This document shows, one piece after another, positions 1-56,176 of a stretch of DNA of 64,000 nucleotides. Within the stretch, counting starts at the first letter, position 1; every line of letters begins with the position of its first letter. Source of the DNA: an uncultured Gemmatimonadales bacterium (GTDB taxonomy: Bacteria; Gemmatimonadota; Gemmatimonadetes; Gemmatimonadales; GWC2-71-9); NCBI GenBank assembly GCA_963740175.1, contig CAVUDL010000003.1:7413-71412 (forward strand), in the 5' to 3' direction. A program made the position numbers and the translations under genes. The notes under the pieces were generated by a model. That model did not search any database and was not told where the DNA came from. It worked only from the letters and a program-made list of their open reading frames with translations.

Positions 1-354
1 CCGGGCTTCTCCCTGCTGGCTCCGGCGCGCCGCCGTGCTGGGCAGGCACTTCAGGTACACGGCCAGGCTGGAGCCCAGCGCCGCTTCGAGCTGTCCCGGT
101 TGCGCCGCCCAGCCACCCCCGGGCACGATGACGCCGGGATTCCCCCCCTGCGCCGCAATCACCGCGTCCCGCTCCATCTCGCGAAAACGGGCTTCGCCCA
201 CCATGCCGAAGATCTGGCTGATCGGCATGCCCATCTCGCGCACCAGCAGGCCGTCGATGTCGATGAGAGGAGCGGGCAACCCGTCGGCCACCAGTCGTCC
301 CACCGTGCTCTTCCCGGATCCGGGGAGGCCGACCAGCAGGACGTGGCGCGGCAT
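1..354 (-). CDS. aroK: shikimate kinase (C-terminal part runs off the left edge of the window)
   Basis: Absent from the ORF track because no stop lies in the window. My minus-strand translation from the ATG at 352-354 reads MPRHVLLVGLPGSGKSTVGRLVADGLPAPLIDIDGLLVREMGMPISQIFGMVGEARFREMERDAV. This has a Walker A loop and the shikimate kinase N-terminal pattern. The start shares one base with the aroC stop (TGATG). Confidence 0.8.
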   Translation of the reverse strand, partial: MPRHVLLVGLPGSGKSTVGRLVADGLPAPLIDIDGLLVREMGMPISQIFGMVGEARFREMERDAVIAAQGGNPGVIVPGGGWAAQPGQLEAALGSSLAVYLKCLPSTAARRSQQGEAR

Positions 355-8660: not shown

Positions 8661-8749
8661 GGCTCATCCTCCATTTTCAGAAGGTGGCATCATCGCGGCG
8701 GAACGGGCGTACCCGATCCCCGCGATCTTGATCGAATGAGTGGTGGACA

Positions 8750-8827
8750 GGGTCTAGGGTCTAGGGTCTAGGGTCTAGAGTCTAGCATTGGGTGAGACCC
8801 CTAGACTCTTGACCCTTGACCCTTGAC
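8750..8827. repeat. heptamer tandem-repeat palindrome (repeat family, copy A)
   Basis: (GGGTCTA)x4 plus GAGTCTA faces CTAGACT plus (CTTGACC)x3. Hand folding gives about 24 pairs out of 27, with a T-T mismatch every 7 nt. It starts 3 nt after the stop of the activator gene. Confidence 0.85.
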
Positions 8828-14795: not shown

Positions 14796-14807
14796 CGTAC
14801 CTCTGCA

Positions 14808-14886
14808 GCTGGGAGCTGGGAGCTTGGAGCTGGAATAGGCTGAGCACGAGCCGCTTACTGCCAGCTCCATAGCCCTAGCTCCTAGC
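14808..14886. repeat. heptamer tandem-repeat palindrome (repeat family, copy B)
   Basis: (GCTGGGA)x2-GCTTGGA-GCTGG faces CCAGCTCCATAGCCCTAGCTCCTAGC. The inner 9-bp stem (14825-14833 with 14861-14869) is perfect. Copy B shares a 22-nt identical string with copy F at 54177-54198. Confidence 0.85.
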
Positions 14887-14953
14887 TCACACGGGGGACA
14901 GCCGAAGATAGAGAGGGCGACCACGTCGACGGTAGGGGGCGTATCATTAACGG

Positions 14954-28647: not shown

Positions 28648-29054
28648 AAAAAGAAGAGGAGAGGGGGGAGAGGGGCAAGAAGAGAAGAAGAAGGGAGAAG
28701 AGGAGAGGAGGGAGGAGGGAGAGAGAGGAGGGAGAGGGAGGAGAGGGAAGGAGGGGAAAGGGGGATGAGAGGTGGGAGGAGAGAGGGGGAGAAAGAAGAG
28801 GAGGGAAAGAAAAGAAGAGAGAGAGAGAGAGGAGAGAAGGGAGAGAAAGAGAAGAGAAGAAGGTGAAAGGAGAGAAAGAGAAGAGAAGGAGAGAGAGAAA
28901 AGAAGAGAGAAAAGAGAGGAGAGAAGAGAAAGAGAAAGGGAGAAAAGGGAGAGAAGAAGAGAGAGGAGAGAGAGGGGGGGAGGAAGAAGAAAGAAAGGAG
29001 AAGGGAGAGAAGGGAGAGGAGGAGGGAGGGGAGAGAGAGAGAGGAAGGGGAGGA
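28648..29054. other. 407-nt purine-only (A/G) low-complexity tract
   Basis: Direct reading finds only four pyrimidines (C at 28676; T at 28766, 28773 and 28864). There is no exact repeat unit. It begins where the N-terminus of the oxidase subunit I gene should lie. Confidence 0.9.
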
Positions 29055-38833: not shown

Positions 38834-39745
38834 TTACTCCCTCCGCACTAACGCCAGCGCCACATCGCCGACGATCTGTAAACTCCCGGGGCTCACCTTG
38901 TCCATGGTGTCCTCCGTGGTGTGCCAGGCGGGGTAATCGAAGTCTACGACGTCGATCGCGCGAATTCCGGCCTTCTGGAGCTCCAGGTGGTCATCGATCA
39001 GCGTATGACGTGGTGACGAGATGAAGTAGCCACCGTAGCCGAGATCCTTCGCCGTCCCCCACACCAGCTCGACCACCTCCGGCGCACCGACCAGCGAGTT
39101 GCCCTCCTGATACAGCTGAAGATCCTTGTCGGCCACCAAATCGAAGAGAACCGCATACAGCGGCTTGGGGCCGGGAAGCTGATGGGCCCCGTAGTAGCGA
39201 GAGCCGATCAGCACGTCGGCCGGAGCCTCGGTGAAATGACCGTAGTCCTCGCCGTCGACGAACAGGAGATCGACTCCGGCGGAGGGTGGGGTCCGCTTCA
39301 GAACATCTGCAACGCCCAGCAGCAAGGCAACGCCGGAGCCGCCATCGTTCGCTCCCAGCACGGCCTTGGTCGAGTCGCGGGAGCGAGGGCTGTCGGACAT
39401 CGGCCGACTGTCCCAGTGCGCCAGCAACAACAGGCGCTTTTCTGCCGTGGGGTTGAATCGCGCGATGAAGTTGCGAAGCGGCAGCGTGGTCTTGTCGGCG
39501 GTGACGTGGTTCCAGCTCTGTACGATGACGGTGTCGGCCCGTTGCCGCAGCAGGCTGTCCAGCCAGTCGCCCATGCGGCGGTGCGCCTCGGTCCCGGGAA
39601 CCCGGGGGCCGAAGCCCACCTGGGTCTGGATGTAGCCGAACGCCGAGGCGCCGTCGAATTCGCGCGGCGGCTTGGCCTTCTCCCTGCAGGAGACGGAGAG
39701 GACGGAGAGGATGGAGACGGCGGAGAGGTATTTGAGTCTATGCAT
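38834..39745 (-). CDS. M28-family protein resembling bacterial glutaminyl-peptide cyclotransferase
   Basis: LLLLAHWDSRP...VLGANDGGSGVALLLGVADVL...GVDLLFVDGEDYG matches the type II glutaminyl cyclase / M28 pattern. The signal peptide is encoded by repeat copy D. Confidence 0.8.
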   Translation of the reverse strand: MHRLKYLSAVSILSVLSVSCREKAKPPREFDGASAFGYIQTQVGFGPRVPGTEAHRRMGDWLDSLLRQRADTVIVQSWNHVTADKTTLPLRNFIARFNPTAEKRLLLLAHWDSRPMSDSPRSRDSTKAVLGANDGGSGVALLLGVADVLKRTPPSAGVDLLFVDGEDYGHFTEAPADVLIGSRYYGAHQLPGPKPLYAVLFDLVADKDLQLYQEGNSLVGAPEVVELVWGTAKDLGYGGYFISSPRHTLIDDHLELQKAGIRAIDVVDFDYPAWHTTEDTMDKVSPGSLQIVGDVALALVRRE

Positions 39746-39804
39746 GCCGAAACCTAATGGGGTCCCTTCTCAATCCTCTCCGTCCTGCTCCGTCCTCTCC
39801 GTCC
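39689..39804. repeat. 9-nt tandem-repeat palindrome (repeat family, copy D) spanning a start codon
   Basis: Left arm GGAGACGGAGAGGACGGAGAGGATGGAGACGGCGGAGAGG (39689-39728). Right arm CCTCTCCGTCCTGCTCCGTCCTCTCCGTCC (39775-39804). The inner 8-bp stem is 39721-39728 with 39775-39782. Confidence 0.85.
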
Positions 39805-42800
39805 TACTGATAGTCCCCCGCATAGAGCGACAACTGGAAGGTGACCATCAGAAAGATCTGCGATGTCCTGCGGCTCACGTGGCGAGCGTCGCTGATCGAG
39901 TAGCCAAACTGAAGGCCCCCGCTCAAGGTCTTGAGCAGGTCGGTGTCGAGGCCGCCGCGTAGCTCCTGGCGCCGCACATCGGACACGACGATGCACGCCG
40001 GATCCCCACCCTGCTCCAGGCACGTGAGCGTCTTGGAGGAGAGTGCCGTCAGTGTGGAGCGAACCTGTTTCCTGGTCCGGCTGATGGAAGCCGGCAATGC
40101 GAAGGAATAGTTGGCCGACCCGGTGAGATCGTCCTGATCCAGTTCGGTTGCATTGCCGTTGTTCTCGGTACGCTGGGATCGGGTGGAAAGCCCGAAGGTC
40201 AGCGCCAGACCGTTCCGGAAGGAAAGCTGCAAGTCCGGCGTCAGCGCGTAGGACGAGATGGCGCTGGTGGCCACCGTCCCGCCCCCGCTCGGCTGGGTCG
40301 AGGTGCCGTTGCGCTGCCGCAAGCCGGCTCCCGCGGCCACCAGCGTCAGAGGTCCGCCGGCAAAGGCTCGGGTCCATCGGACATTGCCCACCGGCCACTC
40401 AATTTGCCGGGTGATGATTTCAGCGAACTCGCCTCCGAGAAGCTGGAAGCGGTCCGTCCGGGTCAGCGAGTAGGACAGCGTGGCGCTGAACCCGAGCGGC
40501 AGGTCGGCCCCCGACGTCACTGTCGTGCTCCGAACCTCGGTGACGCCCCGGGCATCCTCGCCCTCGTGGGTGAGGAACTGGTCGCGTCCGCCGAGCCCCA
40601 GCATGAAGCCAAGGTCCGGGTTGAATGCCATCAAGTCGTAGGTCGAGGTGCGGCCCAGGCGGGTGGCGAAGTCCACCGGGCGCACCCGCGCGAATGCCTT
40701 CCCGATGCCGCTGCTGTCGGACCAGACCTGGCGCAGCGCCCGCCCCAGGTCGAGGGAGACTCCGATCTCCCGGTTCCGACCGTTGTTGAGGGTCTGAGGA
40801 AGGATGAAAGCGCCGCTGTCGCCCAATTCGCGGACCGGATCCCGGCTGGTCAGGGTACGGGACAACACAAAGTTGCTGGTAGTGGTGTATCGCGGGCGCA
40901 GCCATGAGTTCAAGCGTGGGGTAATCGACAGGGCAGTGCTGAACACACGGTCGCGCTCTACGCCTACCGGTATACCAAGGAAAAAGCGGCGCTCCTCATA
41001 GGCCAGCCGGCCCAGGGATGTCGAGTCAGGATAGACTCTGAGATCCCGGGTGCTGGAGAGATCGCCCGTCAACCCGATCATGCCCAGGGGCTGCCAGGTG
41101 AGACCAGCAGAATTCCGCCACAGGTGGGTGAGGGATAGCGTGGGCGTGATCAGGAAATCGTCGGGCCGGGAGACCGGCACTGCGAAGAGCGAGTAGTCGG
41201 ACTGGTTCCTGGACAGGCCGCTGCTCAGCCGCACATTTGACGGCACCAGGCTGAACGTAGCGTCCCCCAGCGCCTTGCCGCCTTCGCTCCGGCGAATCCA
41301 GTCGGGCAGCCCCTTGATGATTCCGCCGAACGGCAGCCGCGGGCCCCGGCGCTCCATCCGAAGATTGTAGCCCAGCGTGAGCGAGTATGCGTCGTTGTTC
41401 GCGTCCGAGAGCTCGGTGCGCGCGCGTCCCTGGTTCAGGATCCCCGCCAGCGAGAGTGGATCCACCACCCCTCGGACCAGCCAGCCCTTGCCCCGCTGAT
41501 TGCGCCGGATCGCGAGCGTATAGTTGCTGTTCCACGCGAGCGGCTTTCGCAGCCCCTCGAGCGCGTCACCGCGCAGGTCACTGCCGGTGAGGAGCTCGGG
41601 CGTCACGTCGCTCCGCGCATAAGCCACGGTGAGCGGAATCGACAGACCAAGACTGGTGGGCAAAAACCGGTCGAGCCGCCAGTTGGTGTTGACCTGAAAT
41701 GCGCCGGTGGTGCGATAGGTGGGGTCGCGGTTGATCTGGTGGAACTGCCCGTCCTGCTTCACGAAGGAAAAGTTCACATTCCCCACATCGGAGGCCAGCA
41801 GCCGGGCGTCCACCGCCATGGCGGCCCCCAACTCGGCGAGGGGACTGCTGAGCCGGATATCATCCACCCAGAGCTCCGCCTCGGGCACTGCCTAGGCTGC
41901 CGGCACTCCGGTAGATGCCTGCGGAGATCTCCTGGACGGCGGCAAGGTTGGGTGGATTGATTCCGGGGTCCGCGAGGTGGACCAGGTAGGGCCCATCGCA
42001 CGCCACGTAGGCATCCACGTCCAGGCTGCCGCACTCGGTTGCGCCGGAAGCGGGTGCGCCGCTCAACCAGCGATCCTCGATGTCGGCCCTGAGACTGCGC
42101 CAGACCTCGAGATCAATGGTGAACTCCGGCTCCCACGTGGTGCTACGCGCGGGTGCGCGATACATGTAGAAGTTGCTGCCATCGCTGCCCAGCTTGATGA
42201 ACGCCTGGAAGTCCCCCTGCTCCCAGCCCTCTCCCCGGCCGCGCATCCAGACCCGTAGCTGCTCGTAGCTCAGAACGTTCTGAGGACCGGTAGGGAGGCG
42301 GAGGTACGCCTCGGCACGCTCGCCCACCTCGATTCCCCGGGCAATCAGCCGCAGGGACTTCTCGTTGACCTCGGTGCCCAGCACCCGCTGGTCTCCGTCT
42401 TTCACGGAGAGTCCCTCAAACACCCCGGGCGGCGGGATGTAGCCCAGGTCCGTGGTATTCTCGGTCGAGATGACCGAGGCGATAACCTCACCACTGGGCT
42501 CCGCCGCAGTACCCGAGATACCCGCGATCGGCGCCTCGGCACGTCGAACCCAGGGCGAACCCACCAGCCGCATGCGCGCAAGCGCGAAGCGCGCGATCAC
42601 GTCCGGACCGCCCACGTCGGCCGTCCCCGCCACGGTGACTCTGAGGTGCTGGATCAGGCGCAGGCTGGGAGTGCCGATCGTCACATCGGGCGTGCGGATG
42701 GGAACCCGGTAGAGCTCCCAGACGCCAGTCGTAGCTTGGGTGATCGAGTCCTTCTGCTGCACGCCGTTCCGCACGAAGTACTTGTCTCCCGGCAGCAGCG

Positions 42801-45996: not shown

Positions 45997-47499
45997 GTGA
46001 GACTCCTGAACCGCTACGTCCTGCGGCAGCTGGTCGCCCCGTTCTGCTTTGCGCTGGCGGCGCTGACCGGCTTCATGTTGATCAGTCAGGTGGCGAAGAA
46101 GTTCGGAGCCCTGGTCGGCAAGGGACTGCCCTGGTCGGTGATTACGGAGGTGTTCGTGCTGAGCCTCCCCTTCATCGTGGCTATGACGTTGCCGATGGCC
46201 GTCCTGTTGGCGGTGCTGTACACCTTCAGCCACCTGGCGGCCGACAACGAGATCACCGCCATGCGGGCCAACGGCATCAGCGTCTACCAGATTCTTGCCC
46301 CGGTTCTGGTCTGGGGTGTCTTCATGGCCACATTCAACCTCGCATTCGTGGACCAGGTCCTCCCCCGAAGCAACGCCCGGCTTCGCTCTCTCCTCATCGA
46401 TATTGGCCGTAAGAAGGCGGCGTTCGGCCTGCGCGAGCAGGTCATCAACGAGGTCCCCCCCTCGAAGTACTTCATCCGGGCCAGCCGGATCGACGCCGCT
46501 ACCGGCCGCCTGAGAGGGGTCACGATCTACGATGTAGGGGGCGAGGCCAGCCGCCGGATCATTTATGCGGACAGCGGTTCCATGGCGTATGCCGAAGGAC
46601 AAACCGACCTGAGCTTGCGCCTTTTCAATGGCTCCATCCACCAGTACCGGCCCGCGGAGCCCACGCGGTTCCAGCTGACGTATTTCACGGTCAACGACAT
46701 CCGGGTGAAAAACGTTTACGACGAGCTGCAACGAAGCACCAGCGAATCGATCCGGGGCGACCGCGAGATGAGCACATGTGAGATGCTGAATGTGGTCCGA
46801 GAAGCCCGGCACGAGCAGGTCGAGGCGCGGCAAGACCGGCGCGAGCTGGTCTTCCGGGACCTACGGCTACTTCTGGCGCTGCCCGCCTTACCTCCAGTGC
46901 CGCCATCCGCCCCCGACACTACCGGCCACGGCTACTGCGACTGGCTCAAATCGGTACAGACACTGGTCCTTCCGGGGACGGCCGAAGCCCAAGCTCCAGC
47001 ACAGGTTCAGACCCCCAAGCTGCCCGGTCCTCCCCGGGGGAAACTGAGGCTGTCCAACTGGTCCGAGGTGGCCACCGCGGCTGACCGGGTACGCGAGGCG
47101 GACCGGAGGGCGGACCGCTATGCGGTGGAAGTCCATAAGAAGTGGGCCATCAGCATGGCCTGCATCACCTTCGTCATCATTGGCATCGTGATGGCCCTGC
47201 GGTTCCCCCGGGGAGGAATCGGGCTGGTCATCGGCGGGGGGCTTCTGGTCTTCTCCATCCACTATGTGGGCCTGACCGCAGGCGAGAGCCTGGCCGACCG
47301 GGGGCACGTGGCGCCCTGGGCCGCCATGTGGGCGCCCAACATAGCATTGACCATCCTGGGAGTGCTGGGGCTGCTCTGGGTGAGCCGCGAGTCCGGGTCG
47401 ACTCGGGGCGGAGACTTCCGCGAGATGATCGAGGGCCTAGCGCACCTGGGCCGCCGACTCCAGGCGGCGACGCTCCGGCGCCTGGGGAGGGTGGAGTGA
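45997..47499 (+). CDS. lptF: LptF/LptG-family LPS export permease (with a long periplasmic insert)
   Basis: MRLLNRYVLRQLVAPFCFALAALTGFMLI is the YjgP/YjgQ N-terminal signature. Six TM helices are predicted. Confidence 0.8.
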   Translation: MRLLNRYVLRQLVAPFCFALAALTGFMLISQVAKKFGALVGKGLPWSVITEVFVLSLPFIVAMTLPMAVLLAVLYTFSHLAADNEITAMRANGISVYQILAPVLVWGVFMATFNLAFVDQVLPRSNARLRSLLIDIGRKKAAFGLREQVINEVPPSKYFIRASRIDAATGRLRGVTIYDVGGEASRRIIYADSGSMAYAEGQTDLSLRLFNGSIHQYRPAEPTRFQLTYFTVNDIRVKNVYDELQRSTSESIRGDREMSTCEMLNVVREARHEQVEARQDRRELVFRDLRLLLALPALPPVPPSAPDTTGHGYCDWLKSVQTLVLPGTAEAQAPAQVQTPKLPGPPRGKLRLSNWSEVATAADRVREADRRADRYAVEVHKKWAISMACITFVIIGIVMALRFPRGGIGLVIGGGLLVFSIHYVGLTAGESLADRGHVAPWAAMWAPNIALTILGVLGLLWVSRESGSTRGGDFREMIEGLAHLGRRLQAATLRRLGRVE

Positions 47500-48620
47500 T
47501 CAAGATCCGGCAGGCCCTGAGGCACTTGCTCCCTACCCGCCGGCTCCGACAGCTGGATCGCTACGTGCTCAGCAGCTGGATTCGCCTGTTCGTGCTGGCC
47601 GCTTTGGGGCTGCCGCTGGTGGCGATCTTCTTCAACCTCACCGACATGCTGAGCAAGCTGTTGGACCGGGGTCTGACCATGAAGGAGATCACCATCAGCT
47701 ACGTGTACGCCCTCCCGGAGTACGCGTTTCTGGTTATGCCTGCCGCGGTGCTCTTTGCCACGGTGTTCACGGTGGTCAGCATGAGCCGCCACTCGGAGCT
47801 CACCGCGGCCAAGGCCGGGGGCCAAAGCTTTCACCGGATCATGCAGCCGTTGTTCATCGCAGCGGGCCTGGCCGTGGTCCTGACATTCGGCGTAGGCGAA
47901 CTGGCACCGTGGGCGACGGCTCGGCAGCTCGAGATCCAGAAGGCCAAACAGGCACGTCCCACCCGGTCGCGCTTCAACTTCGTGTACAGCGGTGACGCGG
48001 GCTGGGTGTACACCGTCCGCTCGCTGGATGTGGCCAACCGCCAGCTGAAGCAGGTGATGTTCGAGCGGCAGGGCACCGGGCTCGACTACCCAGGACTGGT
48101 TCTCACGGCGGACAGCGCGACCTATGACGACTCGCTCAAGAGCTGGCGGCTGCGCACCGGTGCCAGCCGCGTGATTGCCGGGCCCGGCAGACAGGCGACG
48201 TTCAGCTTCCGCACGATGCGCCTCCGAGCACTTCGTCAGTCACCGGGAGACCTGCTGGCGGAGTCGAAGGGTCCCGACGAGATGCGGTATGCGGAGCTGG
48301 GTCGGTATATCGAGGCCCTGCAGCGCTCCGGCAACGATGCCAATAAGCTGATCGTCGAACAGGCGCTCAAGCTGGCCCTCCCGGCGACGTGTCTCATCAT
48401 CGCCTTGTTCGGCGCACCGCTTGCGATCAGTGCACCACGGGCGGGCCCCGCTGTCGGAGTGGCCATCAGCCTGGGCACGGCGCTGATCTTTCTGCTGCTC
48501 ACCCAACTCACCAAGGCAATCGGGTCGGGCGGTGTCATCAACCCACTGGTGGCCGCCTGGTTCCCCAACGTGATCTTTCTGTTCGCGGGACTGGTGCTTC
48601 TGGCGAGGGTGAGGACGTAG
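47496..48620 (+). CDS. lptG: LptF/LptG-family LPS export permease
   Basis: LDRYVLSSWIRLFVLAALGLPLVAIFFNLTD is a YjgP/YjgQ signature. I place the GTG start at 47496, overlapping the lptF stop (GTGA). The ORF-track extension upstream is rejected. Confidence 0.8.
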   Translation: MIKIRQALRHLLPTRRLRQLDRYVLSSWIRLFVLAALGLPLVAIFFNLTDMLSKLLDRGLTMKEITISYVYALPEYAFLVMPAAVLFATVFTVVSMSRHSELTAAKAGGQSFHRIMQPLFIAAGLAVVLTFGVGELAPWATARQLEIQKAKQARPTRSRFNFVYSGDAGWVYTVRSLDVANRQLKQVMFERQGTGLDYPGLVLTADSATYDDSLKSWRLRTGASRVIAGPGRQATFSFRTMRLRALRQSPGDLLAESKGPDEMRYAELGRYIEALQRSGNDANKLIVEQALKLALPATCLIIALFGAPLAISAPRAGPAVGVAISLGTALIFLLLTQLTKAIGSGGVINPLVAAWFPNVIFLFAGLVLLARVRT

Positions 48621-48699
48621 CGGGGCAGCGGGTAGCGGGTAGCGGGTAGCGGGTAAGCGGGGCAGCGGGGCAGCGGGGCAGCGGGGCAGCGGGGCAGCG
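48621..48699. repeat. tandem G-rich repeats, left arm of copy E
   Basis: (GCGGGTA)x3-4 followed by (GCGGGGCA)x5. The array starts directly after the lptG stop. Twenty-seven nt are the exact reverse complement of 49189-49216. Confidence 0.9.
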
Positions 48700-48724
48700 T
48701 ATCGGGTTCGACGAGGGCTTTCGG

Positions 48725-49051
48725 TCAATAGCTCGGTACAGACCCACATGTAAGACGACCGGCGTGATCGCGCAGGGCCTCAATCTCTCCCCAACCTTCC
48801 GCTTTCAGATATCCCAGATCTCGAGCCAAGAGCAGGATATAGGAAAGCTCGGAAAGCGAGCCTAAGACTGATATCCAATAGCGCCGGAATTCGCGAGCGC
48901 CGCGCTTAGCTGAGCCTTCGGCGATGTTTGCAGCAGCAGAATAGGCTGCCCGCTCGGCTTGCGATGTCAGCCCGTACTGTTCTGTTCGCTGGCCAAGTCC
49001 TTGAGTGATGCGATAAACAGTCACAGCACAAGCTCGTGGCACGCAGCCCAT
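48725..49051 (-). CDS. four-helix-bundle protein (23S rRNA intervening-sequence protein family)
   Basis: QYGLTSQAERAAYSAAANIAEGSAKRGAREFRRYWISVLGSLSELSYILLLARDLGYL matches the LtsQlrRAa.Si..NIAEG...GS..E pattern of this family. G+C is visibly lower than in the neighbouring genes. Confidence 0.8.
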   Translation of the reverse strand: MGCVPRACAVTVYRITQGLGQRTEQYGLTSQAERAAYSAAANIAEGSAKRGAREFRRYWISVLGSLSELSYILLLARDLGYLKAEGWGEIEALRDHAGRLTCGSVPSY

Positions 49052-49188
49052 GACTTGAGTCTCTCATGCCGTTTGCCATCTCTCATCGGCGCTGTTTCCG
49101 CGCGAGCTCCCATACCAGCTAGAGTAGCTAGCCGCGGCCGGGTTTTCCCCATCTATCTAGCGCACTTTGTACCTCAGTCGTGCGGGTC

Positions 49189-49216
49189 TCTGCCCCGCTG
49201 CCCCGCTGCCCCGCTG
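49189..49216. repeat. tandem C-rich repeats, right arm of copy E
   Basis: (TGCCCCGC)x3 is complementary to the (GCGGGGCA) array at 48659-48698. It ends 12 nt before the nadB ATG. Confidence 0.9.
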
Positions 49217-49227
49217 TATATTTAGCC

Positions 49228-50733
49228 ATGCTTTCGCCCTCCCGTCCCGTCATCGTAGGCACCGGAATAGCCGGCTTGTGGACGGCGTGGCGGTTGGCGT
49301 CTGAGGGTCTCCCCGTAGTTCTCGTTACCAAAGAAACCCTTGCCGACAGCGCCAGCTCCTGGGCTCAAGGGGGTATCGCCGTGGCACTCGGGCCGGGCGA
49401 CAGCCCCAGCCAGCATGCGGCCGATACCATGGCGGCCAGTGATGGACTGGCCGACCCGGAGGCGGTCCGTATACTCACAAGTGAAGGCCCGGACCGTGTT
49501 TACGAACTCTTGGCGCTGGGTGCCGTGTTCGATCGTGGCCCCGACGGCAGGCTCGGCTTCGGCCTGGAGGCAGCCCATACCCGGGCCCGGATCATTCATT
49601 CAGGTGGCGATCAGACTGGTGCCGCGCTGATCGGCTGTCTGGCTCAGGTGGTGCGCTGTCACCCGTCCATCGAACTGCTGGAGCACACCGAGGTGACCGG
49701 GATACTGGCACCGGACGGCCCCGTGCGCGGAGTCTCCATCCTGCGGCCGGACGGCACCGGGGTGACACTTGCCGCCTCGGCGGTGGTCCTGGCAACCGGT
49801 GGGGTGGGCCAGCTGTACGCCGTGACCACCAACCCGAAGGTCGCCACCGCCGACGGATGGGCACTTGCCCACCAGGTAGGGGCAAAGCTTCGCGACATCG
49901 AATTTCTCCAGTTTCATCCCACCGCCTTGAAGCTTCCCGGCATCAACCCCGCCCCGCTCATCTCCGAGGCTGTCCGCGGCGCGGGAGCACTGCTGCTGGA
50001 TCAGGCGGGACGCCGGTTCGCACTCGACTCAGACGCACGCGGCGAGCTGGCGCCGAGGGATGTCGTCGCGCGGGCCGTGGCGGCGGCCGATGCCTCCGGC
50101 GGAGCGTGGCTCGACGCCAGGGCGGTTGCGGATTTCTCAACCCGCTTTCCCGGCATCACCGCCATGCTGTCACGCCACGGGCTGGATGCCTCCACAGATC
50201 TGCTGCCGGTGGCTCCGGCGCTGCACTATGCCATGGGCGGAGTGCAGACCGACCTCGAAGGGCGCACCACGAAGGCGCGGCTGTGGGCCGTGGGCGAAGT
50301 GGCCCGCACCGGGGTCCACGGAGCCAACCGGCTGGCCTCCAACTCCCTGCTGGAAGGGCTGGTGTTCGCCGACCGGGCCGGCAGAGCGTTGGGACGGACG
50401 CTTCGGTCCGGTACGGCCGCCCAACCGGAACTCTCCCCGCCTCCCGCGGTAATCGAAAGCGGGGCCGACGCCGATTGTGAGTCGATCAGAGCCGAGATGA
50501 GGGAGGTCATGACAGCCGACGTGGGCCTGCAGCGCAGCGAGTCTTCCCTGCTCCATGCGGAGCGCGAACTCCAGCGGCTCACCAGCGCCACACCGAAGGA
50601 GGCGTGGCGCACCCACAACCAGCTCCTCGTGGCCCGACTCATTACCAACGCGGCTCGGCGCCGGCGGGAAAGCCGCGGTGGTCACCGCCGCACCGACTAC
50701 CCTCCCGCATCGTTCCGGCGAGAGGCGGTATGA
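49228..50733 (+). CDS. nadB: L-aspartate oxidase
   Basis: FAD motif VIVGTGIAGLWTA, plus HPTAL and RLASNSLLEGLVF motifs. The start was moved to the ATG at 49228. The stop overlaps the nadA start (ATGA). Confidence 0.9.
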   Translation: MLSPSRPVIVGTGIAGLWTAWRLASEGLPVVLVTKETLADSASSWAQGGIAVALGPGDSPSQHAADTMAASDGLADPEAVRILTSEGPDRVYELLALGAVFDRGPDGRLGFGLEAAHTRARIIHSGGDQTGAALIGCLAQVVRCHPSIELLEHTEVTGILAPDGPVRGVSILRPDGTGVTLAASAVVLATGGVGQLYAVTTNPKVATADGWALAHQVGAKLRDIEFLQFHPTALKLPGINPAPLISEAVRGAGALLLDQAGRRFALDSDARGELAPRDVVARAVAAADASGGAWLDARAVADFSTRFPGITAMLSRHGLDASTDLLPVAPALHYAMGGVQTDLEGRTTKARLWAVGEVARTGVHGANRLASNSLLEGLVFADRAGRALGRTLRSGTAAQPELSPPPAVIESGADADCESIRAEMREVMTADVGLQRSESSLLHAERELQRLTSATPKEAWRTHNQLLVARLITNAARRRRESRGGHRRTDYPPASFRREAV

Positions 50734-52597: not shown

Positions 52598-52814
52598 GCC
52601 ACGGATGAACACGGAGGGAACGGCCCAAAAGATCTTGTTCAACAGCACACCGGCTGAGTTAGATGAGGGCAACAAACATACTGCATACAACTTTACTCAA
52701 ACGGGTAACGAACTGTACTGGTGTGTATGTGACCAAAGCTTCTTGTGCATCCACGTGAGACGGGACCTTCGTTTGACTCAAGGAGCGATCCGTTCCCTCC
52801 GTGTTCATCCGTGG
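52598..52814. repeat. 26-bp perfect inverted repeats enclosing a 165-nt low-GC core (repeat family, copy G; MITE- or IVS-like)
   Basis: GCCACGGATGAACACGGAGGGAACGG (52598-52623) is the exact reverse complement of 52789-52814. The core is markedly AT-richer than its surroundings. The right arm overlaps the last codons of the permease gene. Confidence 0.85.
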
Positions 52815-54157
52815 CTAACGTTTTTGTTTTTGGACCAACTCCGCCACGCATAGTATACCGGCAAGCCCAGCAGAATAATCCCGAACGTCACGCCGGTATT
52901 CACCGGATCCGTCCACAGGGCATTCAGCATCATACCCACAGACGCGAGCAGGAACAGGACGGGCACCACGGGATAACCCCAGGTCCGGTAGGGCCGGGGC
53001 AGATCAGGTCGGACCCGCCGGAGCACGAATACGGCGGCTACCGCAAGCGCGTAAAAGGGCCAGATCCCGAGGATGAACTTGTCGGCCAGCTGCTGAAAAT
53101 CATTGAGCAGTACATAGATGACGCCGAGACCCGTCGCCAGCCAGATTGCCACCGAGGGGCTTTGATAGCGAGGTGAGACCCGGGCAATGGTCTGAAAGAA
53201 GAGACCCCGGTCAGCCATGGCGAAGAAGATGCGCGGACCTGTCATCATCGAGCCATGGAGAGTCCCAAAGCACGACACCATCACAACCAGTGAGATGATG
53301 CCCCCGGCATAGCGTCCTAGCAGGGGAATCCGCTCGGCGGCGGTTGCCGCGATCAGGGGTGACTTCGCCATCTCCGGCAAAGGCACCAGGTAGATGTAGG
53401 CGAGGTTCAGGAGGAGGTAGATAACCAGGATGCCGGCAGTGCCGATGATCAGCGCCATCGGCAGTGTGCGACCCGGGTTCTTCACCTCTCCGCCCATGAA
53501 CGACAGATCGGCCCAGCCATCGTAGGTCCACATGATGGCGATCAGCGCGGTGCCCGTAAGCGATAAGTTCAGACCGCTGCCCCACGCCGGACTGAAATGA
53601 TCCCAGCTGCCCTCTCCCGCTGAGAAGGCCAACAATCCGAGTACGGCCAGGGCGCCGTACTTGAGGATCGTGACCAGGTTCATCACTACGGAGGCGCGAC
53701 TCACACCGAGGTAGTTCAGCAGGCCTACCGACACCACTCCCGCGGCGGCGATGAGGCGGACCTGGAATGGCGTGAGCGGAATGAAGTAGCCGAGATATTC
53801 GGCGAAGATGGTAGCGATGGCACCGAGCGCGGAGGCCCGGATCACCGCCAGCTCGGACCAGCCGAAGAGGAACGCCGGCAACGGTCCGAACGCTTCCAGG
53901 ATGTAAGCGAAGACCCCACCCGAGCGAGGCATTGCCCCGGCCAGCTCGGCCAGGGTAAGCGCGCCAAATAGTGCAATGACGCCGCCCAGGACCCAGGCGA
54001 GCAGAACCGGGCCAGGATCCTGGAGGCGCTCGGCCACACTCGCGGGAACCCGGAAGATGCCGCTTCCGATGGTAGAGCCCACGAGCACTGCCACCGCGCT
54101 CCAGAGCCCGAGGTGCCTGGGAAGACGCTCACCCCAGGCGTCGCGTTCAGGGAGCAT
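52805..54157 (-). CDS. APC-family amino acid permease
   Basis: 450 aa with about 12 TM helices. The N-terminal GSGIFRVPASVA motif is typical of APC transporters. Confidence 0.85.
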   Translation of the reverse strand: MLPERDAWGERLPRHLGLWSAVAVLVGSTIGSGIFRVPASVAERLQDPGPVLLAWVLGGVIALFGALTLAELAGAMPRSGGVFAYILEAFGPLPAFLFGWSELAVIRASALGAIATIFAEYLGYFIPLTPFQVRLIAAAGVVSVGLLNYLGVSRASVVMNLVTILKYGALAVLGLLAFSAGEGSWDHFSPAWGSGLNLSLTGTALIAIMWTYDGWADLSFMGGEVKNPGRTLPMALIIGTAGILVIYLLLNLAYIYLVPLPEMAKSPLIAATAAERIPLLGRYAGGIISLVVMVSCFGTLHGSMMTGPRIFFAMADRGLFFQTIARVSPRYQSPSVAIWLATGLGVIYVLLNDFQQLADKFILGIWPFYALAVAAVFVLRRVRPDLPRPYRTWGYPVVPVLFLLASVGMMLNALWTDPVNTGVTFGIILLGLPVYYAWRSWSKNKNVSHG

Positions 54158-54175
54158 GGAGGAATATAGGCTGGG

Positions 54176-54235
54176 AGCTGGGAGCTGGGAGCTTGGAGGT
54201 GGGAGCTCCTGGCTCCTAGCTCCTAGCTCCCAGCT
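54176..54235. repeat. heptamer tandem-repeat palindrome (repeat family, copy F)
   Basis: (GCTGGGA)x3-GCTTGGAGGTGGGAG | CTCCTGGCTCCTAGCTCCTAGCTCCCAGC. Hand folding around the centre at 54205/54206 gives about 26 Watson-Crick pairs out of 30. It lies in a divergent intergenic region. Confidence 0.85.
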
Positions 54236-54253
54236 ATTTAACTTTCCCGGCGA

Positions 54254-56176
54254 ATGAAACCACTGCCTCCAGACTCGACCCGACTGCTCCGCCGCCTGTC
54301 ATGGACCGGGGTCACCCTGGCTTTCGGTCTCATCGTGCTGGGCGGCATCGTTCGCATTACCGGCTCAGGGATGGGCTGCGGCGAGCACTGGCCCCGTTGC
54401 AATGGAGAGTGGTTCCCTCCGCTCGATCTAGCCACCATGATCGAGATCGGACACCGGTGGGCCGCTGCGCTCGTTAGTCTGGTCGTGTTGGCCATGGCTG
54501 CCGTGGCATGGATCCGCCACCGGTCCGAGCCTGCCCTCCGCAACCCCGCCACGCTGGCACTGTTCATCCTCCTGGTTCAGGTCCTGCTGGGCGCGATCAC
54601 GGTCAAACTCGCGCTACCCCCCACCGTGGTCATCATCCACCTGGCCAACGCCATGCTGCTGCTGGCGGTAGTCCTGGTGACCGCATTACGGGCGCAAACA
54701 GTAGCGTCCGGCTCCGGATCGGAGGCCCGTCCGACTCAGCGACATGTCGCCCATCCGCTCGTGCTGGGGACGGTGGCGCTGGGGTTCGTCGTCATCCTCT
54801 TCGGCGCCCAGGTCGCGAACTTCCACGCCGGCTTGCTCTGCCTGGGGTTCCCACTTTGCAACGGCTCCGTGCGTCTGCCCGCCAACACACTTGCGGCCCT
54901 GCCCTGGGCCCACCGGGCGCTCGCATTCCTGTTTCTCGCCGTCGCTACCGTACTCGCGGTGCGGCTGAACCGGCGGAGCGACTCGGCGAGCGGTGCCTTG
55001 AGACGGGCCGCCGGCTTCGTGGTTGGAGCAACCGTGCTCCAGCTTGGCGTAGCGGCGGCGATGGTGCTGCAGCTGCTGCCTCCGACTCTCCGAGCCGTAC
55101 ACCTGCTGGTGGGTACGCTGATCTGGGGCGCACTCGTGCTCCTGGCGTTCCACTCGCACCATACTCCCGCCGCTGTCGGCGAGCCGGGAACCACATCGCG
55201 GGAGGGAAAGCGGCGCACTGAGCCATCGGTACTGGCCGACCTCGTCACGCTTACCAAGCCCCGCATCATCTCGCTCCTGCTGGTCACCACCGTGGCACCG
55301 ATGTTCATCACTCCCGCTGGCTTGCCCTCGCTCTCCCAGGTCCTTTGGGTGATCCTGGGCGGCTATTTGATGGCGGGCGGGGCCAATGCCATCAACATGT
55401 GGTTCGACCGGGATATCGATGACAAGATGAGTCGTACCCGGCTGCGGCCAATTCCCGCCGGCCGGATCCCGGCTACACTGGGCCTGGCATTCGGGGTCTC
55501 ACTCGGCCTGACGGCGTTCGCCATCTTCTGGTACCGGGTAAATCCGCTCAGCGCGTGGCTCGCGCTCGGTGGCCTCCTCTTCTACGTCTTTGTGTACACG
55601 ATCTGGCTCAAGCGGACCAGTCCGCAGAACATCGTCATTGGAGGAGCGGCCGGGGCGTTTCCACCGCTGGTGGGATGGGCCGCCATGACCGGGCGCCTCG
55701 ACCTGGCAGCGGTCTACCTTTTTGCCATCATCTTTTACTGGACGCCGCCGCACTTCTGGGCCCTGGCTCTCATCAAACGGGGCGAGTATGCCAAGGCGGG
55801 CGTCCCCATGATGCCCGTGGTGCGCGGGGAAGCGCGGACCAAGTTCGAGATGCTGGCCTACACGCTGATACTGCTCCCGCTCACCCTGATGCCGGCCTTC
55901 TTCGGGGCGCTGGGCCCTTTCTATGGCGTTGCGGCCGCGCTCCTGGGTGCTCGGCTCCTGTGGTATTGCATCCAGCTCCGGCGGGAACAATCGGGCGGGC
56001 CCGTCGCGTGGCGGATGTACCGCTACTCTCTGCTGTACCTGGCCCTGCTCTTCGCCGCCATGGGCATCGATCGGGCGCTTCCGTTCGGGCACCTGGCGGC
56101 AGGCCCACCGATCATCATTCTCGACCGTCCAGAGCAGGACGTCGCAACTCCGAGTGGTGGCCACCACGGGCACTGA
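54254..56176 (+). CDS. fused heme A synthase (CtaA/COX15) and protoheme IX farnesyltransferase (CtaB/CyoE)
   Basis: The N-terminal half has GGIVRITGSGMGCGEHWPRCNG and paired His-containing TM helices (CtaA). The C-terminal half has TKPRIISLLLVTT...NMWFDRDIDDKMSRTRLRPIP (a UbiA-type CtaB). It is a single 640-aa ORF. Confidence 0.85.
   Translation: MKPLPPDSTRLLRRLSWTGVTLAFGLIVLGGIVRITGSGMGCGEHWPRCNGEWFPPLDLATMIEIGHRWAAALVSLVVLAMAAVAWIRHRSEPALRNPATLALFILLVQVLLGAITVKLALPPTVVIIHLANAMLLLAVVLVTALRAQTVASGSGSEARPTQRHVAHPLVLGTVALGFVVILFGAQVANFHAGLLCLGFPLCNGSVRLPANTLAALPWAHRALAFLFLAVATVLAVRLNRRSDSASGALRRAAGFVVGATVLQLGVAAAMVLQLLPPTLRAVHLLVGTLIWGALVLLAFHSHHTPAAVGEPGTTSREGKRRTEPSVLADLVTLTKPRIISLLLVTTVAPMFITPAGLPSLSQVLWVILGGYLMAGGANAINMWFDRDIDDKMSRTRLRPIPAGRIPATLGLAFGVSLGLTAFAIFWYRVNPLSAWLALGGLLFYVFVYTIWLKRTSPQNIVIGGAAGAFPPLVGWAAMTGRLDLAAVYLFAIIFYWTPPHFWALALIKRGEYAKAGVPMMPVVRGEARTKFEMLAYTLILLPLTLMPAFFGALGPFYGVAAALLGARLLWYCIQLRREQSGGPVAWRMYRYSLLYLALLFAAMGIDRALPFGHLAAGPPIIILDRPEQDVATPSGGHHGH

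Follow-up and report, generated by a model that had tools for sequence, protein, structure and literature searches.

Intervening sequences (IVSs) of rRNA that are bounded by a stem and carry members of the S23p/IVS four-helix-bundle (4HB) family have been known for decades, and apart from Avd we know of no function for any member of this family, which comprised 15,963 clusters at 50% identity in a single-sequence search. In a stretch of 64,000 nt from an uncultured Gemmatimonadales bacterium (GenBank assembly GCA_963740175.1, contig CAVUDL010000003.1, positions 7,413 to 71,412 of the forward strand; the whole stretch is hereafter called the window), a 4HB open reading frame (ORF) lies outside rRNA, between the protein-coding genes lptG and nadB, and is enclosed by two mutually complementary arrays of short tandem repeats. 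This locus raises the question of whether the enclosing hairpin is peculiar to one spacer or accompanies the 4HB gene wherever it resides, and what such a cassette of gene and arms may be.

The lptG-nadB spacer (48621-49227) is made up of three parts, a left array, an ORF on the minus strand and a right array, whose features are listed in Table 1. Read directly, the left arm runs GCGGGGCA, (GCGGGTA)x4, (GCGGGGCA)x5, and Tandem Repeats Finder reported a period-7 array (48617-48661) overlapping the period-8 array. The repeat finder indicated that the right arm is the exact reverse complement, with 100% matches over 27 nt, of 48663-48689 or of 48671-48697, which places the arms 500 or 492 nt apart depending on the register of the left arm. 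The three readings, of the sequence by eye, by Tandem Repeats Finder and by the repeat finder, were in agreement and bear out the three-part spacer with exact inverted arrays that a first-pass annotation of this DNA had described. Supportively, RNA folding of the cassette retained the long-range stem in both the minimum-free-energy and the centroid structures. The terminal inverted repeats thus provide an enclosing stem of the length that marks an IVS (at least ~20 bp), in a cassette located between lptG and nadB and not in helix 25 or 45 of a 23S rRNA gene.

The generality of this design was assayed by an arm score, for which the 300 nt preceding a 4HB gene were compared with the 250 nt following it and the highest-scoring ungapped inverted match was taken. 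A metagenome scan provided 80 further loci, and with loci from other phyla added, 87 were tested in total. At 83 of these 87 loci the score exceeded every shuffle, with a purine-rich tandem array upstream of the gene and its complement downstream. The median score was 22.5 at the gene vs 9 for the shuffles, while direct, reversed or complemented control versions of the test gave 8.5-9.5; the window cassette itself scored 27, and shuffled sequence reached at most 15.5. A score of at least 14 was obtained for 67 of 74 loci at the gene, compared with 3 of 103 windows shifted by 1300 nt (shifted median 9). The Gemmatimonadota loci occupied about 20 unrelated genomic contexts, and about 30 contexts were counted over all phyla. 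Armed loci were found in Gemmatimonadota, Nitrospirota, Omnitrophica, Margulisbacteria, Cyanobacteria and Bacteroidota, and also in a locus of Azospirillum lipoferum AZO_p2 (L137), which we take, from flanking rRNA recognised by eye, to be an IVS in helix 45 of the 23S rRNA gene. The arms of this Azospirillum IVS are purine-first and tandem-like, as in the other 4HB cassettes. Therefore, the IVS-like topology seen by the first-pass annotation at a single locus proved right and more general than had been proposed, and none of the three checks which that annotation had named (arms at other 4HB genes, relatives with the gene and no repeats, the family models) went against it.

In the phyla other than Gemmatimonadota, the cassettes were wedged mostly co-directionally between genes, including cas10/cmr3, with spacers of 5-60 nt, and both arms must be co-transcribed in such tight operon spacers. 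At 40% identity, a distant subfamily with members in Omnitrophica, Nitrospirota, Margulisbacteria and other groups carried GGGGCAAG/GGGTCAAG-type arms with their complement, 5-60 nt from the ORF, and its cassettes were sited between unrelated genes, namely between two AcrB genes, between a histidine kinase and a response regulator, and between EAL/TPR genes and a sensor kinase. The design was also present in cultured organisms, namely Nostoc punctiforme and Trichormus variabilis, in both of which the arms are TCAGGAG/CTCCTGA heptamers, Picosynechococcus PCC 7003, Riemerella anatipestifer, Geminocystis and Gemmatirosa kalamazoonensis. G-quadruplex formation was considered as a general principle of the arms and rejected by eye, since the low-G+C arms TCAGGAG, AAAAGGG and GGTTCAAG contain no G-runs. 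A rule placing the G-rich arm upstream of the gene was likewise dismissed, since the purines come first whichever strand of any inverted repeat is read; the purine-first order is a polarity of the hairpin, not of the gene.

Individual carriers added observations of their own. On a plasmid of Picosynechococcus sp. PCC 7003 (L133; NZ_CP016476.1 126543-126899), a type III-B operon has the armed cassette inserted precisely at the junction of cas10/cmr2 with cmr3. The legend of one figure on CRISPR-associated proteins lists '23S rRNA IVP' (PMC10910872), and operon insertions of this kind, or arrays taken for CRISPR-like repeats, might be behind that listing. On plasmid 1 of Gemmatirosa kalamazoonensis (L132; ~1300-1880 of the locus), an upstream G-rich (AGGGCAGG)x4 array runs straight into an incomplete C-rich array, and after the stop codon comes another C-rich array, (CTCCTGCC)x4; because C-rich arrays stand on both sides of the gene, the upstream arm has two alternative pairing partners. 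Plasmids alpha (L130) and gamma (L131) of Nostoc sp. PCC 7120 encode the same 4HB protein, with only a downstream (CTCTGCC)x5 array left. An ISL3-family transposase gene ends just upstream of the gamma copy, the homologous sequence upstream of the alpha copy is not annotated as a gene, and these two copies may have spread as passengers of an insertion sequence (IS).

The relation between arms and gene was compared along the protein tree, and arm type was found to track it. The lptG-nadB sub-clades match the GCGGGGCA, GCGGGTAA and GCGGGGAA arms, other protein clades carry GGGCGGTA, GAGGCGGTAA, GATGGGCG, GGGAAGGAC or GGTGGAGGTT arms, and the GGGnCAAG arm type is common to several phyla. One locus with unrelated neighbour genes (L034) holds a cassette that is 82-83% identical to the lptG-nadB cassettes and has the same GCGGGGAA arms, and its protein nests inside the lptG-nadB clade; L063 and L070 resemble this case. 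These comparisons indicate that the arms have been copied together with the gene to new loci.

The family assignment of the window ORF was upheld by hidden Markov model matches to PF05635 (E 1.9e-20; 73.5 bits, cut-off 33.8) and TIGR02436 (72.5 bits, cut-off 24), and Pfam found in this ORF no domain other than PF05635, and no HUH/RAYT or DDE transposase. Its G+C content is lower than that of its neighbours, as had been noticed before, with 56.3% vs 64.9% for the window and a third-position G+C (GC3) of 0.50 vs 0.76 in lptG and nadB. Such a difference is usual, since the coding G+C of the 4HB gene was below that of the flanks in 72 of 74 loci (L001-L114 and the window) by a mean of ~7 points, and it persists even where vertical inheritance has saturated synonymous sites. 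The first-pass view of an intact 108-aa gene had to be abandoned, however. Intact homologues are 130-145 aa long and begin R.G.RHE.LKSW.ACHEL.LAVYR in the alignment, and tblastn of one of them (P0015) against the window returned two high-scoring segment pairs in different frames. A DNA alignment with four intact orthologues revealed six or more indels that only the window copy has, among them a T inserted into the conserved codon for a Trp close to the C-terminus; the original stop has been lost. Thus the window copy is not an intact full-length protein (~115-145 aa with all four helices), its first helix being encoded in another frame from an ancestral start near 49113. These indels were read as pseudogenisation and not as assembly noise, because the neighbouring lptG and nadB are intact. 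Judged from the alignments, the window copy is a multiply frameshifted relic, of which the 108-aa ORF is a fragment.

In other genomes, the orthologues were intact in ten cases (L001, L002, L003, L006, L008, L009 and L018-L021) and frameshifted in L004, L005 and L007. The dN/dS of the intact orthologues was 0.09 overall and about 0.16 when unsaturated pairs alone were counted, demonstrating that their proteins are under purifying selection. The closest solved structure to P0015 was 2GSC (XCC0516; E 5.8e-23), a match by which the cassette protein is predicted to form a pentameric four-helix-bundle ring; a solved 4HB homologue has been described as a homopentameric ring (PMC4990558).

The history of the cassette was followed through the spacers of the nearest genomes, which are uncultured Gemmatimonadales metagenome-assembled genomes. 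In all 14 of 14 relatives with an LptG identity of 82-97%, a 4HB gene was present at the same place and in the same orientation between inverted tandem 8-mers, the units of which are species-specific and co-vary between left and right (GCGGGGCA/TGCCCCGC, GCGGGACA/TGTCCCGC, GCGGGTAG/CTACCCGC and GCGGGGAA/TTCCCCGC). In six relatives with an LptG identity of 71-79%, the gene was absent and nadB lies 87-283 nt after lptG; among such gene-less relatives L012, L015 and L017 keep a compact hairpin of related units, which in L012 reads (GCGGTACG)x3-loop-(CGTACCGC)x3(CTTACCGC)x7, and L013 has none. Two further contigs stop inside the left array. Empty sites, which the first-pass annotation had proposed to seek, thus occur in the more distant relatives, and the nearer ones hold the gene with its repeats. 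With midpoint rooting, the filled loci and the empty loci were each monophyletic with respect to the other, and a single gain therefore accounts for the pattern as parsimoniously as a single loss. At this locus the cassette is old and vertically inherited through a Gemmatimonadales clade, and not recently mobile, contrary to the mobile cassette that had been suggested. The window gene is dead, yet the arms are still perfectly complementary, and therefore the upkeep of the arms is independent of this protein copy.

Hairpins of the same design but without a gene also occur in the window. Where six other loci of the same repeat type had been reported, four gene-less tandem-repeat hairpins and one non-tandem inverted repeat were confirmed (Table 1). 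The units of the four hairpins are AGGGTCT, AGCTGGG, GACGGAGAG and GCTGGGA, all with the purine-rich strand first and with loops of 0-60 nt, and all four abut stop codons or start regions of neighbouring ORFs. The proposed link between these loci and the cassette therefore stands as to design and polarity and falls as to the repeat unit, no 11-mer being common to the window's four gene-less hairpins and the sampled 4HB arms. Elsewhere, some gene-less hairpins do have 11-mers in common with 4HB arms. No 4HB gene remnants were found in the loops of the gene-less hairpins, and a census of a Geminocystis plasmid found no gene-less hairpin with the unit of its cassette, in a replicon too small to be informative.

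The divergent spacer at 54157-54254 was compared with its counterparts in L001, L003, L004, L006, L007, L009 and L020. The hairpin there is built of GCTGGGA units in the window and of GCTATTG units in L001 (16478-16617), with flanking proteins 90-97% identical, and some relatives have no hairpin at this spacer and a conserved ATATATCCTTGACAAGGC...GTTCTTTC segment instead. In L007 and L009 this segment stands between arms and is inverted relative to the other relatives, and the arms may thus mediate inversion of the DNA that they enclose.

Table 1. Features of the lptG-nadB cassette and repeat hairpins elsewhere in the window (positions of the window).
Feature	Position	Strand	Basis or remark
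lptG stop codon TAG	48618-48620	+	Final G is the first base of the left array; LptF_LptG Pfam match 47142-48620
Left arm, G-rich on the + strand, downstream of the 4HB gene	48619-48699		Tandem Repeats Finder: period 8, 10.5 copies, 90% matches
108-aa ORF, longest surviving piece of the putative 4HB pseudogene	48725-49051	-	PF05635/TIGR02436 match; alignment to intact homologues
N-terminal fragment in another frame, MGARAETAPMRDGKRHERLKSWAACHELVL followed by a stop	49021-49113	-	Three-frame translation; ancestral start codon 49113-49111
TACTCT (TAnnnT), candidate -10 box of a leaderless promoter	49121-49126	-	7 nt upstream of the ancestral ATG, inside the arms
Right arm (CTGCCCCG)x3.4, upstream of the 4HB gene	49190-49216		Tandem Repeats Finder: 100% matches
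TATATTT, likely nadB -10 box	49217-49223	+	Adjoins the end of the right arm; the nadB ATG (49228) comes 4 nt later
Gene-less tandem-repeat hairpins (four)	8749-8827, 14807-14888, 39692-39805, 54170-54235		Tandem 7-9-mers, then their complement
Non-tandem 26-bp perfect inverted repeat (GCCACGGATGAACACGGAGGGAACGG)	52598-52623 and 52790-52815		AT-rich 166-nt loop

The closest known counterparts of the cassette are the rRNA IVSs with an S23p ORF, such as those of Leptospira, Coxiella, Xanthomonas, Brucella and the Azospirillum locus, which encode the same protein family. In both, terminal inverted repeats form a stem of 20-40 bp with the ORF in its loop, tandem 7-8-mers occur in the 5′ arm, the ORF is frequently decayed, and the insert measures ~430-600 nt. 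The Coxiella IVS, for example, has a 28-bp terminal stem, an S23p ORF in the loop that is decaying, excision by RNase III, and in its 5′ part a tandem heptamer, GACAGAT x3, of variable copy number (PMC4990558). Unlike these, the cassette lies outside rRNA between two protein-coding genes and antisense to both, its arms are longer pure tandem arrays, its gene probably has a promoter of its own, and excision by RNase III would hold for it by analogy.

On this analogy we favour, with moderate confidence, the interpretation that the lptG-nadB element is a free-standing and now decayed IVS-type cassette, with the 4HB gene in the loop of a long hairpin whose paired arms would serve as an RNase III substrate. 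A transcript crossing the cassette, here either lptFG read-through on the plus strand or the 4HB transcript on the minus strand, would fold the arms into 20-40 bp of double-stranded RNA. RNase III would then cut the arm stem as it does in rRNA intervening sequences, whereby the insert would leave the host RNA and the lptFG and nadBAC messages would be separated with stem-capped ends. Processing of this kind would let the element reside in rRNA, within operons or in narrow spacers between genes without costing much. The basic, pentameric 4HB protein is probably a binder of RNA or DNA of the element itself, and may act in its propagation or in the upkeep of the arms. RNA pairing followed by RNase III cutting is considered most likely because of the rRNA-IVS-like design, the operon co-transcription of the arms and the 20-40 bp stems.

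Several observations weigh against an IVS-type RNA element. G-U-compatible mismatches numbered 98 in the sense and 74 in the antisense direction, a difference that is not significant and gives no clear RNA-strand signature, and many arms outside Gemmatimonadota contain 10-20% mismatches. In Gemmatimonadales, a TAnnnT-N6-7-ATG arrangement was recognised by eye inside the arms, both in the window and in the alignment of three close orthologues (L009, L018 and L008), and because of this element transcription of the gene itself may begin only past the upstream arm. The window gene, moreover, is antisense to both neighbours, and the co-variation of the arms could stem from template-switch homogenisation of DNA and not from selection for pairing. 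A search of sequencing runs with the window returned only soil DNA runs, with at most 12% of words, and no RNA run with this sequence.

Three other kinds of system provide a basis for alternatives. Avd (bAvd, PDB 4DWL), from diversity-generating retroelements, is a homologous basic four-helix-bundle protein, and PF05635 has been described as Avd-like (PMC10053308). Matches to PF22296 (bAvd) were obtained among the 4HB loci of other phyla, and NF033474 matched an Omnitrophica-type member weakly and the window ORF not at all. Unlike in Avd systems, no reverse transcriptase, template or variable repeat is found near the cassette, whose neighbours are lptF, lptG, nadB, nadA and nadC according to Pfam. 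The short tandemly repeated heptamers of heterocystous cyanobacteria (STRRs) were reportedly described by Mazel and co-workers in 1990 and are said to occur also inside RNase P RNA. Like the cassette arms, they are intergenic tandem heptamers that often form inverted, hairpin-forming pairs, and the STRR-like heptamers TCAGGAG/CTCCTGA flank the 4HB genes of the Nostoc and Trichormus species named above; unlike the cassette, STRRs are described as gene-less, and the cassette units are 7-8-mers of other sequence in another phylum. A REPIN-RAYT system comprises a single, vertically inherited gene with inverted repeats, and many gene-less intergenic hairpin copies near stop codons. It shares with the 4HB cassettes the flanked single gene, the purifying selection and the gene-less hairpins near stop codons, and differs in that a HUH or tyrosine-transposase domain is missing from the 4HB protein and that in the window no unit matches between cassette and gene-less hairpins.

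The main rival is accordingly an element acting at the DNA level, in the manner of REPIN-RAYT or of a miniature inverted-repeat transposable element, in which the arms would be terminal inverted repeats, the gene-less hairpins non-autonomous derivatives and the RNA pairing incidental, with the 4HB protein, possibly together with a host reverse transcriptase or nuclease, propagating or maintaining the hairpins. Such an element would explain why the arms accompany the gene when it is copied to new loci, with an arm type that follows the protein tree, why gene-less hairpins outnumber cassettes in the window (4-5 vs 1) and turn over fast at syntenic sites (GCTGGGA vs GCTATTG in L001), why the DNA between arms is inverted in L007 and L009, and why some gene-less hairpins contain 11-mers of 4HB arms from elsewhere; the wobble test without strand bias and the homology of 4HB proteins to Avd, a reverse-transcriptase cofactor of diversity-generating retroelements (PMC10053308), point in the same direction. 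We nevertheless regard it as unlikely. The protein has no nuclease, transposase or reverse transcriptase domain, no reverse transcriptase stands beside any sampled cassette, no target-site duplication was visible by eye in the window flanks, and the lptG-nadB clade shows no presence/absence polymorphism; the four gene-less hairpins of the window lack any 11-mer from a sampled 4HB arm, and near-identical copies at different loci are missing except for the IS-linked pair in Nostoc PCC 7120. A broader form of this idea, which we hold to be doubtful, would make the 4HB cassettes the gene-carrying members of a widespread class of hairpins, with the Gemmatimonadota gene-less hairpins and the cyanobacterial STRRs as non-autonomous derivatives; an Avd-like pentamer, perhaps with a reverse transcriptase acting in trans, would create, homogenise or propagate the arrays, and rRNA IVSs would be copies that landed in rRNA helices.

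If the repeat units of the arms were instead sites to which the pentameric 4HB protein binds, with about one unit per subunit, they could serve autoregulation or the packaging of mRNA or DNA of the element itself, and their pairing would be secondary. The typical array of 3-10 units of 7-10 nt, the correlation of unit type with protein subfamily, the conservation of the GGGnCAAG unit across phyla at 60-70% protein identity, the Shine-Dalgarno-like AGGAG that cyanobacterial upstream units hold directly before the ATG, and the homopentameric ring of the solved homologue (PMC4990558) are all consistent with binding. This explanation is rendered improbable by arms that are perfect in the window though the protein is dead and by units that differ between orthologues at ~70-85% protein identity, and it leaves the need for reverse-complementary arrays unexplained. 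Finally, the hairpin might be an ordinary intergenic terminator or insulator between the lptG stop and the nadB promoter, in the loop of which a 4HB gene landed. A gene-less hairpin of related units indeed occupies the same site in L012, L017 and L015, the arms reach up to the lptG stop on one side and to the nadB TATATTT on the other, the other hairpins of the window abut stop codons or -10-like boxes, and rRNA IVSs are likewise found at the tips of pre-existing helices. A gene merely fallen into a local hairpin is disfavoured, however, because arm type tracks the protein tree and the arms follow the gene to unrelated loci; related genes have the same type of arm even at unrelated loci and in unrelated phyla, arms are present at 83 of 87 genes vs 3 of 103 shifted windows, and no U-tract terminator was found, which together make this explanation improbable.

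A literature search that retrieved papers on IVSs and Avd found no description of inverted tandem repeats flanking 4HB genes outside rRNA, and no paper joining STRRs to four-helix-bundle genes. What is new here, as far as that search shows, is that a stem and loop of inverted tandem repeats accompanies the 4HB gene outside rRNA, in spacers, in operons and between cas10 and cmr3. If the IVS-type interpretation is true, where rRNA IVSs come from, what stand-alone Avd-like proteins do and what STRR-type hairpins are would become one testable question. For annotation, caution is advised, as the arrays on either side of the gene can pass for CRISPR-like repeats and break short-read assemblies.

Other classes of element were also considered for the cassette. 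A clustered regularly interspaced short palindromic repeat (CRISPR) array was rejected, since the units of 7-8 nt abut directly without spacers, whereas CRISPR arrays have 23-50-nt repeats and unique spacers. A consensus scan of 48400-49400 found no U-tract terminator, and an intrinsic (Rho-independent) terminator was rejected for lack of a U-tract in this interval and because the arms are 490 nt apart. Rfam, rRNA families included, gave no match in the cassette or in the whole window, and no target-site duplication was visible by eye in the flanks of the window's cassette, with no direct repeat outside the arms. The non-tandem inverted repeat of Table 1 is located in the spacer where nadC and the gene beyond it both end, and has neither an Rfam match nor 4HB similarity.

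The border of the right arm with nadB is well conserved. In a spacer comparison of 22 loci, the TATATTT 3′ of the right arm was kept in all relatives, in which nadB is 77-93% identical (in the frame from the ATG at 49228). A TATATT(T) motif stands 4-6 nt before the ATG both of nadB (49217-49230; nadB starts of L001-L020 compared) and of the minus-strand gene 52805-54157 (54143-54157), adjoins repeat arms and is likewise kept in all relatives. A scan for the sigma-70 promoter consensus found none, and the closeness of TATATT(T) to the ATGs suggests leaderless transcripts with a -10 box only. Elsewhere in the window, a polypurine (GA-rich) tract of ~400 nt on the plus strand (28651-29049), with no complementary partner within 900 nt, lies just upstream of a minus-strand ORF whose translation, read by eye, resembles cytochrome oxidase subunit I.

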